From: a virus | Direction: 5' to 3' (one strand) | Length of the DNA: 64,000 bases | Virus record (IMG/VR): IMGVR_UViG_3300030117_007501 | Coordinates: 64,001 to 128,000 of that record | Shown here: positions 9,206 through 51,572 of the stretch, piece by piece | Layout of the letters: every line of letters begins with the position of its first letter | Numbering within the stretch: position 1 is the first letter of the stretch | Translations under genes and position numbers: made by a program | Notes under the pieces: model-generated | What the model was told of the DNA's origin: nothing | Database searches by the model: none | Seen by the model: only the letters and a program-made list of their open reading frames with translations

Positions 9206-9535
9206 ATGCCAAAATTCAATGGACAAAACAAAAAGAAAATAGATCCAAGATACTTCATGGACGAAAAGAAGGAAACTATCTCAGAGTCAAAAGAAGAGGT
9301 AAAAGCCGAAGGGCAATATCCATCCCCCAGTGGAGATTCAGTCACAGACGAAGACGTGGTAAGATCAGTATACAATCTTTTAAAAGATAACCAAAGTTCA
9401 GGTTATCGAGCACTTGCCGGCAGGTTCATGGAAATGATGAAAGAGCGGGGAGTGATATCACAAGAATCAGGAGAAGAAATGGACAAGAGTTACAAAGCTC
9501 GTGCTGCCCGCCTAGCGGGTATACCAGGAATCTAA
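9206..9535 (+). CDS. Hypothetical protein
   Basis: 109-aa ORF with a strong AGGAGAGG SD. Confidence 0.75.
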   Translation: MPKFNGQNKKKIDPRYFMDEKKETISESKEEVKAEGQYPSPSGDSVTDEDVVRSVYNLLKDNQSSGYRALAGRFMEMMKERGVISQESGEEMDKSYKARAARLAGIPGI

Positions 9536-9561: not shown

Positions 9562-9660
9562 ATGAAGAATTTTATGCACAAACTATTGAACCTTTTTAAC
9601 CCAAAGCACTGCTGCTGCTGTTGCGGATGTTGCGCATGCGAGAAGGCTTGTTGTAGTTAA
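9562..9660 (+). CDS. 32-aa Cys-rich micropeptide MKNFMHKLLNLFNPKHCCCCCGCCACEKACCS
   Basis: Translated by hand; AGGGAG SD at about 9547-9552; fills the intergenic gap; 10 Cys using both TGC and TGT. Confidence 0.7.
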   Translation: MKNFMHKLLNLFNPKHCCCCCGCCACEKACCS

Positions 9661-9662
9661 TA

Positions 9663-10190
9663 ATGAAACTCATAGTAGAAAACTGGAGACGCTATATCAA
9701 GGAGGGCTTGGAAGAGAGGAGAGCAGATGCAAAACTTTTTTTCGATGCTCAAGATGGTACGTTGAGAGAGTTGATATTAGCATGGATAGAAGAATCCCTT
9801 CCTCCAGAAGGAGTGAAGAGATATCATTCTCGAGATGATAGGTGGGCTGGTTCCGATTTTGCTCGAGCAGAAGCTCAAAGATATATTTCAGAGTATTTTC
9901 CAAACTCCCCAATAGAAGGTATGATGAACACCAACGCTGCCGACAGTGAGGGTGATAATTGGAGATCAGTTGGTATAGAGCCGCTGGACTATGATGCATT
10001 CTTAAGTTTTGACACCCTAATACAAACTATAAAAAGTATGTATGAAGACAGTCGAATGAGCATACTTCACAACGATTTGATGAAATTGGGGAGTCATAAA
10101 TACCCTGGAGGTATCGTACACTATTCGTTGTTGTATTTTGGCAGAGAACTGATATCAGCAAAGAAAAGATATGAAAGGAGAAGGCAATGA
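9663..10190 (+). CDS. MKxIxENWR-tagged hypothetical protein
   Basis: N-terminus MKLIVENWRRYIKE. Confidence 0.75.
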   Translation: MKLIVENWRRYIKEGLEERRADAKLFFDAQDGTLRELILAWIEESLPPEGVKRYHSRDDRWAGSDFARAEAQRYISEYFPNSPIEGMMNTNAADSEGDNWRSVGIEPLDYDAFLSFDTLIQTIKSMYEDSRMSILHNDLMKLGSHKYPGGIVHYSLLYFGRELISAKKRYERRRQ

Positions 10191-10471
10191 AAGATATAAT
10201 GGAAAATTTCCGAAATAACGTAATCAATGAGAAGATAGGTGAAGCTAGGGGTTCTACTGCCGGCGAAGGTATGCCTCTCAAGCGCGCTTTTGAGTATGCT
10301 ATAGAATACGCCGCCTCAAAAGGACAGAATTTCTCAGGAGCGTTAGGGCATGCTCAAAAGGTAAGACTTAGAAATTGGGTTCGAGATAACGTTGCAAATG
10401 AAAATATGTCAGATCCAGTTGCCGAGGAAGCTATTAGAGCGGCTATAGATTCTAAGGTAGCTTATAGATAA
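10187..10471 (+). CDS. MKxIMENFR-tagged hypothetical protein
   Basis: N-terminus MKDIMENFRNNVINE; AGGAG SD. Confidence 0.75.
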   Translation: MKDIMENFRNNVINEKIGEARGSTAGEGMPLKRAFEYAIEYAASKGQNFSGALGHAQKVRLRNWVRDNVANENMSDPVAEEAIRAAIDSKVAYR

Positions 10472-10821
10472 TGAAAATGAAACTCATAATGGAAAGTTTC
10501 AGAGCAAACATGGGGCTTACTCAGTCTATGGGTATCGGAGGCAATTACGATAATGAGTCAGAGGCAGCTATAGATCCTAATGCAAGGCAGATTATTCATG
10601 GCGAGGTTACCACAAAAATAGAGGAAATAGGCATGGATTGGATTCTTGACGATATAAGCGATGATTTATTTGCTCTTGGGGATCAGTCAAAAAGCTCTGG
10701 AGAATACAGAGAAAAAATTAAAGATTACCTAAACAGCAAGGCTGATGAATTTGGATATTCTAATTTAGGTGATGAAGTGTTTGAAGAGAGGGGGACTAGT
10801 GATCAATCCATGGATGTCTAG
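10471..10821 (+). CDS. MKLIMESFR-tagged hypothetical protein
   Basis: N-terminus (MK)MKLIMESFR. Confidence 0.75.
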   Translation: MKMKLIMESFRANMGLTQSMGIGGNYDNESEAAIDPNARQIIHGEVTTKIEEIGMDWILDDISDDLFALGDQSKSSGEYREKIKDYLNSKADEFGYSNLGDEVFEERGTSDQSMDV

Positions 10822-11344
10822 ACTAGAAATAGAGACGATAGAGAAATATCTAAAACCTAGCTTTAAAATGCTTGAATACGGCTCAGGCGGGAGCACTCTT
10901 TACTTTTCGAGATTGGTACAAGAGTATTATAGTGTCGAGCACGATGCGGAGTGGTACGAAAAAATAACAAAAATCTTAAAAAACACAGAAAACAAAATCT
11001 GCAAGTACAGCCTAGTGGAAGTAGCAAAAGAGGATATCAAACCAGCGCCTGTACAGCAAACACCAGTGCCATGGTCCCAACTTGAAACTTCAGACTATTA
11101 TTATCTTTTTGAAAAATATATCAAAGAGCCTTCTAAATTTGGTGCCAAATTTGATGCTGTTTTGATCGATGGCCGTGCTCGCCCGGAGTGCGCAAAATTT
11201 ATTTACAATTTTTTATCCCCGAACGCATATGTTTTTATACATGATTATTGGCCGCGGCTTTATTATCATGTTGTAGAGGATCAATATAGAGTAATAGATC
11301 ACGTGAAAGCCGGTCAAAGCTTGGTGGTATTGCAGATAAGATGA
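10799..11344 (+). CDS. Class I SAM-dependent methyltransferase-like protein
   Basis: MLEYGSGGST, SVEHD and VLIDGRAR motifs; GTG start after a GAGGGG SD. Confidence 0.8.
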   Translation: MINPWMSRLEIETIEKYLKPSFKMLEYGSGGSTLYFSRLVQEYYSVEHDAEWYEKITKILKNTENKICKYSLVEVAKEDIKPAPVQQTPVPWSQLETSDYYYLFEKYIKEPSKFGAKFDAVLIDGRARPECAKFIYNFLSPNAYVFIHDYWPRLYYHVVEDQYRVIDHVKAGQSLVVLQIR

Positions 11345-11358
11345 GGATAAACAAATAG

Positions 11359-11661
11359 GGGGGTGATCAGGTTTCGACAGGGTAAGGATAATAATACGTG
11401 CAAGGATGTGTGGGTAGGCACAGTAAAAATACCCAAAACTATAAATGCAAACGATGATATCGAAGCAATGGGGGAGGTGGCATTAGCCGCATAACCCAGA
11501 GGGTTTTCCAGATACCCTTCTAACCCAACATCTGGATTTGTTATATTTGATAATTTACATATTTGTGACTTATAGCTGTCTGAAGCTAGAATCAGACTAA
11601 CCTTGTGAATGACGTATTATTTGAGATGTTCTGGACGCGGGTTCGACTCCCGCCACCTCCA
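11359..11661 (+). ncRNA. ssrA: tmRNA, tag peptide ANDDIEAMGEVALAA (11447-11494)
   Basis: 5' GGGGGTG pairs with 3' CACCTCC-A with a G3:U wobble; T-arm GCGGGTTCGACTCCCGC; H2 AATAATACGT/ACGTATTATT; pk1 TGTGT/GCACA plus GGGTA/TACCC; tag ORF ends in LAA-stop. Confidence 0.96.
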
Positions 11662-11671
11662 CTAACTTTTC

Positions 11672-11700
11672 TTGACATTATAATAATTAATTATTATAAT
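11672..11700 (+). promoter_or_regulatory. Perfect sigma70 promoter upstream of iscU (leaderless spacing)
   Basis: TTGACA-N17-TATAAT, with 6 nt between the -10 hexamer and the ATG. Confidence 0.85.
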
Positions 11701-11706
11701 TAAAGT

Positions 11707-12096
11707 ATGGCATATTCAAAAGAAGTAATAGAGCACTTCGAAAATCCTAGGAACGTAGGATCATTAGATAAAGATGACAACTCTGTGGGAACAGGTATTG
11801 TTGGTGCCCCTGCTTGTGGGGATGTCATGAAGCTTCAAATCAAAGTAAATAATGACGGTGTAATTGAGGATGCAAAATTCAAAACATACGGTTGTGGTTC
11901 TGCTATAGCCTCTTCATCTTTGGTGACGGAATGGATAAAAGGTAAAACACTGGATGATGCCAAAAAAATAAAAAACAAAGATATAGCAAATCACCTTTCG
12001 CTTCCGCCTGTAAAAATACACTGCTCTGTTCTGGCAGAGGATGCCATAAAATCTGCTATTGAAGACTACAGGAGCAAAAATGATAACATTGACTGA
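11707..12096 (+). CDS. iscU: Fe-S cluster scaffold protein
   Basis: NPRNVG, GAPACGDVM, YGCGSAIAS and LPPVKIHC motifs. Confidence 0.97.
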   Translation: MAYSKEVIEHFENPRNVGSLDKDDNSVGTGIVGAPACGDVMKLQIKVNNDGVIEDAKFKTYGCGSAIASSSLVTEWIKGKTLDDAKKIKNKDIANHLSLPPVKIHCSVLAEDAIKSAIEDYRSKNDNID

Positions 12097-12394
12097 ATTT
12101 GCAGCGAATAAGATTAAAACACTTCTTGCCGAAAAGCAAGAAACCGGCATTCGTGCCGGCATCAGGGGCGGGGGATGTTCTGGTTTTACTTATAAATTGG
12201 AATTTGATAATCAAGCCGAAAATGACAGAGTAATAGAAAGCCATGGGGTTAGTCTCTATGTGGATGCAAAGAGTTACTTGTATTTAATGGGAACTGAGAT
12301 AGATTTTGTAGATGAGCTGAACCAGTCTGGATTTCGGTTTGTGAACCCAAACGCGAAAAGAACGTGCGGCTGCGGTGAGTCTTTCTCTGTTTAG
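12080..12394 (+). CDS. iscA: A-type Fe-S carrier (IscA/HesB family)
   Basis: GGGCSGF and TCGCGESF; start at ATG 12080 after AGGAG. Confidence 0.93.
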   Translation: MITLTEFAANKIKTLLAEKQETGIRAGIRGGGCSGFTYKLEFDNQAENDRVIESHGVSLYVDAKSYLYLMGTEIDFVDELNQSGFRFVNPNAKRTCGCGESFSV

Positions 12395-12409
12395 GTACTA
12401 ATTAATAAT

Positions 12410-12847
12410 ATGAAGCTTATAATGGAAAATTGGCGAAAGTTTGTTAACGAGGCTGAAAAAGATAATCCCTGCTGGGATGGGTATGAAATGATTGGCACTA
12501 AGATGAAGGATGGAAAAGAAGTTCCAAATTGTGTGCCAAAAGAGGATTCCTTAACTGAAGAAGATGAGCCCATTGAAGAAAAAGTCGACAAAGACTCCAT
12601 GCCATGTAACGAGCCTCGCACAACAAAGAGTCACAAAGGAAAATCACACGTCGTAAAAGCTTGTGAGGATGGTGTAGAGAAAATAATACCCTTCGGAGAG
12701 AAAGGCGCTAAAACAGCGGGCAAGCCAAAAAAGGGTGAAAGCGAAAAAATGAAAAAAAAGAGAAAGAGTTTTAAGTCCCGTCACGCCAAGAATATCAAAA
12801 AAGGTAAAATGTCCGCTGCATATTGGGCTGACAAGGTGAAGTGGTAA
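12410..12847 (+). CDS. MKLIMENWR-tagged protein with short Cys modules and a basic C-terminal domain
   Basis: MKLIMENWRKFVNE; PCWDGY...VPNCVP; KSFKSRH...SAAYWA. Confidence 0.8.
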   Translation: MKLIMENWRKFVNEAEKDNPCWDGYEMIGTKMKDGKEVPNCVPKEDSLTEEDEPIEEKVDKDSMPCNEPRTTKSHKGKSHVVKACEDGVEKIIPFGEKGAKTAGKPKKGESEKMKKKRKSFKSRHAKNIKKGKMSAAYWADKVKW

Positions 12848-12851
12848 ATAC

Positions 12852-13472
12852 ATGAAACGTATAATGGAAAATTTTCGAAAATTCATCGATGCCGGTGGAG
12901 AAGCAGCTGCCAACCCAGAAGCGAATTTACCAGAAGAGGCTAAGCAAGCGGTTGCAACTATCTCATATTTTCTTGGTTATATAGAAAAATTACAAAAAGA
13001 AATAGAATTGTATGGGCGCGATAGCGCTTCAGAAAGGCCTGTGGCATTTCCTAGAGGCATGCATGAATTGTATAAGGTTCTTAAGTCTGTAGCCTACAAT
13101 GTGAGAACGTTTCATTATGATTTGTTTAGTGGAGAATATCCCCTTATTGAAGATATTTCGTTTGAATTTAAAGAACTCGGCTACCTCGACGCCGAGGATA
13201 AAGTAAGGAATGATGTCTTTGTCTCGCTTTTAGACTTGGAGAGTATGTTCTTTCAAGAGGTTGTTGAAACTGGTATGAGTTTTGATAGTGCCGTAGGCAT
13301 AATGAACGATGAACTCTCTAGTGAAAGATTTCAAAGATACGAGGCGGGATCCCACGAGAACACTAAAGGAAAAGTAAGAGAAATTTCAAATATTGTCAAA
13401 AATGACAATGAAGCACAGCTGGCTTTAGATGATTTTATGCATGATAGCCAGAGGAGACATCGAAGGAACTAG
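12852..13472 (+). CDS. MKxIMENFR-tagged hypothetical protein
   Basis: N-terminus MKRIMENFRKFID. Confidence 0.75.
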   Translation: MKRIMENFRKFIDAGGEAAANPEANLPEEAKQAVATISYFLGYIEKLQKEIELYGRDSASERPVAFPRGMHELYKVLKSVAYNVRTFHYDLFSGEYPLIEDISFEFKELGYLDAEDKVRNDVFVSLLDLESMFFQEVVETGMSFDSAVGIMNDELSSERFQRYEAGSHENTKGKVREISNIVKNDNEAQLALDDFMHDSQRRHRRN

Positions 13473-13515
13473 GGGTTCGACTTTTAATGTTTCCGTTAGC
13501 GAGGTTATTTAATAT

Positions 13516-14079
13516 ATGAAGATTATAATGGAAGGTTGGAGAAGCTACTTGAATGAATCTAGATTCAAGGGGTTCGAGAGAGAGCTTAAGAACAAGGTGT
13601 TTCCTCATTTACCGGATTTTGTGTTTAACGACATGTACGGACACGAAGGCGTAAAAGATTATGCTGTTGAAAGGACTGAAGACATAAACAAGATAGGGTT
13701 AGAAAAGTTCTTCAAGACAGATGAGTTTGCAAAAAGTGTTTACGATAGATACAACCTGCAGTGGACTAAGAAGCCTGTTGTTTTGGAGTTGGAATGGGAA
13801 GATATAAACTCAGAAGAGAGAAACTTTTTGATGAACAAACACTTGGGTAAAAATCCAAACTTTCCTATGGATAAATACAGAGAGAAAATTAACCGCATTC
13901 AGACAACCACCCCAGGTTTGGGAGCCGGCGATCATGAGCCTGTTATATTCAAGATGGAGGGAGATAGTGTCGTTGATATTTTAGGCGGCCGCCATAGAAC
14001 TTTTGCTTCTTTTCTTGATGAAGAAGGAGAAATTAAACCGGGCCCAATTAAAATAAAGGCTTATATCGGAAGAGTGTAG
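13516..14079 (+). CDS. MKIIMEGWR-tagged protein with a possible ParB/Srx-like C-terminal domain
   Basis: MKIIMEGWRSYLNE; EPVIF...ILGGRHR resembles the ParB GxxR signature. Confidence 0.65.
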   Translation: MKIIMEGWRSYLNESRFKGFERELKNKVFPHLPDFVFNDMYGHEGVKDYAVERTEDINKIGLEKFFKTDEFAKSVYDRYNLQWTKKPVVLELEWEDINSEERNFLMNKHLGKNPNFPMDKYREKINRIQTTTPGLGAGDHEPVIFKMEGDSVVDILGGRHRTFASFLDEEGEIKPGPIKIKAYIGRV

Positions 14080-51110: not shown

Positions 51111-51158
51111 TAAAAATTTTCATAACTAATTAATATTACACGATAGCAGGGTACTATA

Positions 51159-51539: not shown

Positions 51540-51572
51540 CTCTAATTACTAATGACTTAAGAGGAAGGCAAA

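Follow-up and report, generated by a model that had tools for sequence, protein, structure and literature searches.

A modular 14-residue N-terminal leader on unrelated proteins of uncultured marine T4-like phages is a candidate capsid-targeting tag

Why would small proteins that resemble one another in nothing else begin with the same few residues? The question is raised by six genes in a 64,000-nucleotide (nt) window of viral DNA, corresponding to bases 64,001-128,000 of a 158,282-bp IMG/VR contig (IMGVR_UViG_3300030117_007501). The contig derives from an uncultured T4-like phage and has an estimated completeness of 87%. The six open reading frames (ORFs), located at window positions 9663-14079, are all on the + strand and share the start M-K-x-I-[MV]-E-[NSG]-[WF]-R. 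An earlier note on this DNA had proposed that the shared start is a packaging tag that loads diverse effectors into the phage head. Our analysis indicates that the leader probably belongs to a capsid-targeting and propeptide system of the T4 type, in which the number of interchangeable leaders has grown to three. We place the probability of this reading at roughly 60%.

The six ORFs and their N-termini were all found where the earlier note had located them, except that the ORF described at 10477 opens at 10471. In a six-frame scan of the entire contig using the pattern [IVLM][MVLI]E[NSGDT][WF]R, there were seven matches, six of which were these N-termini. When a leading M-K was required, only these six remained. 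Thus, the genome-wide scan that had been proposed as a check revealed enrichment of the motif at ORF starts. Four of the six tags end in a hydrophobic residue followed by x-E, as had been noted: I-K-E, I-N-E, V-N-E and L-N-E. The bodies of the proteins are mutually dissimilar, with no pairwise BLASTP match below E = 0.1.

To establish how widely the tag occurs, a degenerate DNA pattern for MKxIMENWR was run on IMG/VR. This yielded at least 120 contigs and at least 132 tagged ORFs, and all 132 matches listed sit at ORF starts. Single-linkage clustering (BLASTP, E < 1e-4) of the 106 complete tagged proteins among the matches listed resulted in 50 body families; overall, there are at least 50. 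A looser regular expression applied to 349,000 residues matched 124 times within the first 30 residues and 7 times in the interior. Complete relatives carry three to six copies of the tag each, always on the coding strand, and a reversed-pattern control returned none. The bodies that could be named using Pfam include Peptidase_M23, Amidase_2, pentapeptide repeats, an AAA_33 kinase, GNAT, a C5 DNA methylase, a cyclic phosphodiesterase and a cytidylyltransferase. In 596 Gb of bacterial and archaeal genomes, the tag was matched six times, always on contigs of metagenome-assembled genomes (MAGs), where we estimate that roughly one match would be expected by chance. One tag-bearing locus, a 34.9-kb contig (L140, PAQX01000001.1), contains a tagged 357-aa ORF in a MAG labelled Deltaproteobacteria bacterium SP124. 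This may be either a hint of the host or a mis-binned phage contig.

The alignment of the 50 families also defined the extent of the tag. Beyond the nine residues fixed by the search pattern, 78% of families have F/Y at residue 11, 68% have L/V/I at residue 12 and 64% have Glu at residue 14. Because conservation continues at these positions and ceases past residue 14, the full tag is MKLIMENWR-x-[FY]-[LVI]-x-E, approximately 14 residues. At the nucleotide level, Leu3 and Arg9 are each encoded by all six codons among the 50 family representatives, the codons for Lys2 and Asn7 match body usage, and there is no upstream consensus. The only base-level oddities are Ile4, which is ATA in 82% of cases versus 34% in the bodies, and Glu6, which is GAA in 90% versus 71%. 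The six local genes behave similarly: their synonymous codons vary (AAA/AAG, CTC/CTT, AGA/CGA), the W/F position is TGG, TTC or TTT, and the 60 nt upstream of the six contain no common sequence. Given this codon diversity and the lack of an upstream DNA consensus, the tag is conserved at the peptide level, and it is the peptide on which selection acts.

The tag, hereafter class B, is one of three types of leader. Class C has the form ...K-[KR]-I-D-P-R-Y-F-[LM]-x-E and class A is M-K-[IV]-T-K-x-Q-L-K-Q-I-I-K-E-E. Orthologues of tagged protein 1 (59-69% identity) possess a class-B leader in P0013-P0015 and a class-C leader (...KKRIDPRYF-L-N-E) in P0016 and P0017, and leaders of all three classes are found among relatives of the protein 3 body. 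The relatives of a NUDIX protein encoded by this contig include tagged proteins, variant-tagged proteins and one without the tag. The leader is retained in ten homologues of protein 6, and the same leader is kept in three homologues of protein 5. One protein 6 homologue is a chimera that changes to a methyltransferase body after its first 55 residues. In relatives, the class-C leader occurs on unrelated bodies (L006, L009, L011, L028 and L048) and on a gene beside the prohead protease, between the protease and the gene for a small membrane protein (family F5). The class-A leader, which in relatives is found on genes flanking the protease, occurs in this contig as M-K-I-T-K-x-x-L-x-x-I-I-x-E-E in a gene run at contig positions 55,128-59,731, just before the window, and again at 142,854 (L130). 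Because orthologous bodies (proteins 1 and 3) carry different classes, the three leaders are exchangeable and, judging from the relatives, all occur inside the head module. The idea of a portable tag on unrelated cargo was therefore borne out, by at least 50 body families and by single bodies behind different leaders. The tag is not unique: class B is one of three interchangeable classes, and it is widespread in an uncultured clade.

The genomic context of the tagged genes was evaluated in a neighbour census in which all ORFs of 120 tag-bearing loci were clustered. The commonest neighbours are F0, F1 and F5, which are conserved head-module genes, together with the portal, the large terminase, the protease and a 139-aa protein, F7. 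The usual order in relatives is terminase, portal, F1, F0, tagged gene, F5, protease, leader-bearing gene, F7. For comparison, the order in T4 is 20 (portal), 67 and 68 (core), 21 (protease), 22 (scaffold) and 23. The slots of the tagged genes, in the portal-protease interval and right after the protease, thus equate to the positions of T4 67/68 and 22. Overall, 38 of 121 tagged ORFs (31%) directly adjoin a head-module gene, and six body families occupy those slots. We estimate that about 3% of random genes would do so in a genome of approximately 250 genes, which corresponds to an enrichment of about ten-fold. The gene directly after the protease opens with the exact tag in L009, L011, L070 and G024 (at 107,364 in the last), and in other relatives this gene has a W-R-x-Y-L-x-E core some 15 residues from its start. 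By gene order, the tagged genes are linked to core and scaffold positions.

The tag also co-occurs with a protease of the appropriate type. This contig encodes a gp21-type prohead protease (Peptidase_S77, E = 2e-32). The same family is present in 18 of the 36 tag-bearing records longer than 30 kb, including 11 of the 11 that are at least 66% complete; the remaining tag-bearing records are fragments of 15-47% according to CheckV, indicating genomes of roughly 180 kb. A gp23-type capsid gene is present in all five near-complete relatives checked. The local gp23 cut site is unreadable because this contig ends before the major capsid gene. In the capsid proteins of three relatives, there is a candidate L-R-E/A (the slash marking the putative cut) at residues 57-60. 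T4 gp23 has L-T-E/A at residues 63-66, the site at which gp21 cuts.

Two possible origins of the tag within the head genes were considered and set aside. The tag is not a copy of the C-terminus of F0, as 0 of 43 members carry it. Mimicry of the propeptide of the major capsid protein was suggested by a segment, L-L-x-K-W...L-L-E-G, which resembles the tag by eye, yet it fell outside the best 45 matches listed for the tag hidden Markov model (HMM). Three further features of the head module in this contig were observed. Directly after the prohead protease, in the scaffold position, lies a gene for a 970-aa protein (contig 154,323-157,235; L129:8323-11235) with no Pfam or PHROG match, whose 740-926-aa homologues in relatives open with class-A-like leaders. 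F7 (contig 157,239-157,658) opens with a class-A-like segment, S-E-L-K-K-I-L-K-P-L-I-K. Finally, the gene just upstream of the large terminase (contig 147,789-148,364; L129:1789-2364), a member of family F10 (14 loci, no PHROG match), encodes the motif W-[RKE]-x-F-L-x-Q-G-G close to the C-terminus, with a basic tail after it; this motif is a weak match to the class-B tag HMM.

The closest precedent is in T4, whose internal proteins bind the scaffold core via a capsid targeting sequence (CTS) and otherwise share nothing (PMC3012670). To remove the T4 propeptides, gp21 cuts behind a Glu; ITE and LTE are such sites in Alt (PMC5694885). The T4 CTS (of IPI, IPII and IPIII, and the Alt/core propeptides) and the present leader are both short and N-terminal, start with M-K, have Glu at residue 6, end in [L/I]-x-E and occur on unrelated carriers. 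Moreover, T4 and the tagged phages both encode a gp21-family protease, and both have leader-bearing genes at the 67/68/22 positions of the head module plus a variable accessory cluster. The present leader differs in its length (14 residues versus 10), its Trp-Arg core and its existence in at least three interchangeable classes. The cargo differs as well: at least 50 families in this clade, read here from genes alone, versus the few T4 proteins named (PMC5694885).

By analogy with T4, we infer core binding, cleavage, packaging and injection. Specifically, the class-B leader, which is predicted to be helical, would dock proteins, once synthesized, onto the scaffold core while the prohead assembles. 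The gp21-family protease would then cut after the Glu of [LVI]-x-E (Glu14); a further cut after I-M-E, at residue 6, is possible. The mature cargo would stay in the head with the DNA and enter the host at infection. The docking, the cut at Glu14 and the retention in the head are proposed on the basis of the N-terminal position shared with the T4 leaders, the similar length, the M-K and Glu6, the [LVI]-x-E ending, and a tag helix modelled with low confidence apart from the body. Leaders and bodies are moved independently by recombination, such that each phage has a different leader-tagged set. The capsid-targeting claim of the earlier note thus gained contextual support from the gp21-type protease in every near-complete tagged genome, the head-module enrichment at T4 core/scaffold positions and the Glu-type cut motif. 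More tentatively, the clade, an abundant one in this view, may use a three-leader address code, with the leaders freely exchangeable on the same cargo, to load a hot-swappable arsenal of dozens of protein families into the capsid for co-injection; we consider this broader proposal possible, at somewhat less than even odds. The arsenal would include cell-wall hydrolases, a DNA methylase, a pentapeptide-repeat protein, RNA-repair and nucleotide enzymes, and a ParB/sulfiredoxin (Srx)-like protein.

The timing of expression was considered using a candidate promoter motif. The TAnTTA hexamers that had been noted 3-5 nt before three of the ATGs are present: TAGTTA at 3 nt (9663), TAATTA at 5 nt (12410) and TATTTA at 4 nt (13516). 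If these hexamers are promoters, the mRNAs would be nearly leaderless. The longer form, ACTAnTTA, is strongly strand-biased, with 26 copies on the + strand of the contig against a single one on the - strand, and 18 copies are within 60 nt upstream of a start. It precedes baseplate, tail and head genes as well as leader-bearing genes of all three classes, including that at 12410. In five cases, ACTAnTTA is only 4-5 nt before the ATG, a spacing that suggests leaderless mRNAs. ACTAnTTA is thus a candidate shared promoter in place of the T4 late promoter, TATAAATA, which occurs four times on the contig, fewer than expected, and never at structural genes.

Several observations weigh against the capsid-targeting reading. 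In this genome, the F0-F5 slot is empty and there is no class-B gene in the head module; the tagged genes sit in the 9663-14079 cluster, outside it. Two of the six local leaders do not have the [LIV]-x-E ending, which is missing from the leader at 10477 and replaced by I-D-A in the leader at 12852. At residue 15, the P1' position, E, Q, G, S and D predominate, in contrast to the Ala of both T4 leaders read (ipII and ipIII, from NC_000866). These two T4 leaders have only M-K and Glu6 in common with the present one; there is no significant similarity to the T4 CTS beyond M-K...E6, and no T4 protein is among the best 45 tag-HMM matches listed. Even a looser pattern gave zero matches in seven cultured T4-like phages (S-PM2, immuto, T4, Syn9, HTVC008M, P-SSM2 and C48C1), and published virion proteomes are unusable for this reason. 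Late timing is called into question by ACTAnTTA copies before some non-structural genes in the replication-side half of the contig. Finally, some of the cargo, such as the DNA methylase, kinase and NUDIX proteins, would serve equally well as cytoplasmic proteins.

Other explanations of the leader were weighed against these data. The sequences reveal a modular N-terminal peptide and not its destination. Accordingly, the leader might address proteins to a partner other than the prohead, acting as a tag for a phage chaperone, a degradation or timing tag, or a site for terminase/portal assembly. The contig's crude gene list contains candidate DnaK- and GroEL-like N-termini, and the tag-like motif of F10 lies next to the large terminase. 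We nevertheless consider such a destination unlikely, though the most probable of the alternatives, given that tagged genes are enriched about ten-fold beside core/scaffold positions and that the last residues of the tag form the Glu cut motif of the protease with which it co-occurs. An RNA or DNA element, such as a translation-initiation enhancer, a feature of leaderless mRNAs or a recombination handle for cassette shuffling, would account for the skewed codons of Ile4 and Glu6, the promoter-like motif that some tagged genes have as little as 3-5 nt ahead of the ATG, and the recombination near the tag that the chimeras reveal. It is very improbable in light of the unrestricted codons of Leu3 and Arg9, the ordinary codon usage of Lys2 and Asn7, and the missing upstream consensus. 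Further, variants of the tag keep the type of residue (W/F, I/V/L) and not the bases, and the tag is also present on translationally coupled genes with ordinary ribosome-binding sites.

The presence of IscU and IscA genes and of a Cys-rich mini-ORF inside or beside the cluster raises the idea that the leader is recognized by a modifying enzyme, in the manner of the leaders of ribosomally synthesized and post-translationally modified peptides (RiPPs). However, the unbiased census of 120 loci contained no recurrent enzyme, the recurrent neighbours being head-module genes, and the IscU/IscA pair has its own sigma-70-like promoter and is not among the top neighbour families. We thus regard this explanation as highly improbable. 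Least probable of all, to the point of being negligible, is that the six genes are plain paralogues that diverged until only an N-terminal helix was retained. They are clustered and alike in size, but pairwise BLASTP revealed no similarity between the bodies, and bodies homologous throughout were the case that the earlier note had said would refute its proposal. In addition, the architectures differ (a ParB/Srx-like fold in one protein, a Cys module plus phrog_7595 in another), the same tag occurs on enzymes of unrelated Pfam families, and orthologues swap leaders.

The six cargo proteins provided limited functional information. In searches of Pfam and PHROGs, the only families matched by the six bodies were phrog_7595 and Cys-module families, in protein 4 alone. 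For the C-terminal domain of this protein, the matches fall on hypothetical genes or on DNA that lacks annotation, in records of small roseophages (SIO1 and CRP, for example), and the phrog_7595 profile has only 96 positions. The description of protein 6 as ParB-like is plausible from its modelled fold. In an AlphaFold 2 (AF2) model with a predicted local distance difference test (pLDDT) score of 84.9, the tag forms a helix, modelled with low confidence, that lies away from the folded body, and residues 81-187 matched Srx and the N-domains of ParB and Noc over 75-83 residues with Z scores of 5-6.2 and root-mean-square deviations of 2.6-3.5. The body also contains a GGRHR motif; a G-x-x-R nucleotide-binding motif is expected of the ParB/Srx fold. 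Against these middling fold matches, the Foldseek E-value was only 0.3, there was no Pfam match, and a PDB profile search returned nothing significant, so the ParB-like label of the earlier note is weakly supported. For proteins 1, 2, 3 and 5, no fold or family could be assigned: protein 1 was without assignment from Pfam, PHROG or the ESM Atlas (nothing in the Atlas output was usable), and protein 2 had no family match in Pfam or PHROGs.

Features of the six-gene cluster and its surroundings (window positions)
Feature	Position	Strand	Remarks
Class-C-leader protein	9206..9535	+	...KKIDPRYF-M-D-E; directly upstream of cluster
Cys-rich ORF	9562..9660	+	32 codons; 11 Cys in last 16 residues; doubtful gene
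Weaker candidate promoter version	9654..9659	+	TAGTTA
Tagged protein 1	9663..10190	+	175 aa; class-B leader, I-K-E at residues 12-14
Tagged protein 2	10187..10471	+	94 aa; leader with F replacing W; I-N-E at residues 13-15
Tagged protein 3	10471..10821	+	116 aa; tag from second Met at 10477 (114 aa); degenerate leader, no terminal Glu
Phage tmRNA	11359..11664	+	Rfam RF00023, 126.7 bits; ARAGORN tag peptide ANDDIEAMGEVALAA
IscU-like gene	11707..12096		after tmRNA; sigma-70-like promoter in front of the pair
IscA/HesB-like gene	12080..12394		second gene of the pair
Candidate promoter element ACTAATTA	12397..12404	+	ACTAnTTA copy, 5 nt before protein 4 ATG
Tagged protein 4	12410..12847	+	145 aa; leader V-N-E, CW-x-GY Cys module, Lys-rich phrog_7595 domain
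Tagged protein 5	12852..13472	+	206 aa; leader with F replacing W, then I-D-A-G-G-E
Weaker candidate promoter version	13506..13511	+	TATTTA
Tagged protein 6	13516..14079	+	187 aa; leader ends L-N-E; residues 81-187 ParB/sulfiredoxin-like fold, GGRHR motif
Further ACTAnTTA copy	51126..51133
Further ACTAnTTA copy	51542..51549

The six tagged genes form three short runs, 9663/10187/10471, 12410/12852 and 13516. The start of protein 2 overlaps the stop of protein 1 (ATGA), so protein 2 is translationally coupled. The runs are separated by a methyltransferase-like gene, the gene for the transfer-messenger RNA (tmRNA), which lies mid-cluster, and the IscU/IscA pair. The Cys-rich ORF separates the class-C-leader gene from the first of the class-B genes. 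A second group of genes, with looser variants of the tag, is present in this genome at contig 61-65 kb.

The leader may also be compared with systems outside the T-even phages. In phiKZ, 201phi2-1 and SPN3US, the propeptides of ejection and head proteins are cut at S/A-x-E by a T4-like prohead protease (PMC5694885, PMC7411985). Many head proteins of these giant phages are cut after Glu, and the SPN3US paralogues gp53 and gp54 have identical N-terminal propeptides. Those propeptides are longer, family-specific and experimentally mapped, whereas the present leader is short, exchangeable and found on unrelated families. Gene cassettes are likewise shuffled in T4-type phages, as with promoter early stem-loops (PeSL), where hypervariable gene sets recombine through short sequences that they have in common. 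In the present case, what is shared is not a DNA junction but a translated peptide, on which selection acts at the amino-acid level. Encapsulin cargo-loading peptides and the scaffold-mimicking tails of phage cargo are further examples in which a short portable peptide sends cargo into an HK97-fold shell. In encapsulins, the peptide usually lies at the C-terminus of the cargo and is left in place, and no homology to the present leader is implied. In our literature searches, no paper contained this motif and none tied capsid targeting to marine T4-like phages. A conserved CTS on diverse internal proteins is known in T-even phages; what appears to be new, on genomic evidence, is a sequence-distinct 14-residue leader, in three interchangeable classes and on at least 50 cargo families, in an uncultured marine T4-like clade.

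If the leader marks packaged proteins, a 14-residue motif would predict, by sequence alone, the injected "first-strike" proteins of an uncultured clade of ocean phages. The 50 or more families, most of which have no known function, would then constitute a list of candidate anti-defence and host-takeover factors. The existence of three interchangeable leaders raises the question of whether the position, copy number or order of release of a protein inside the head depends on which leader it carries. The leader could also become a tool for loading foreign proteins into the capsids of phages other than coliphages. More broadly, the T4 capsid-targeting principle would prove to be modular and of ancient origin, and to have expanded greatly beyond the T-even phages.

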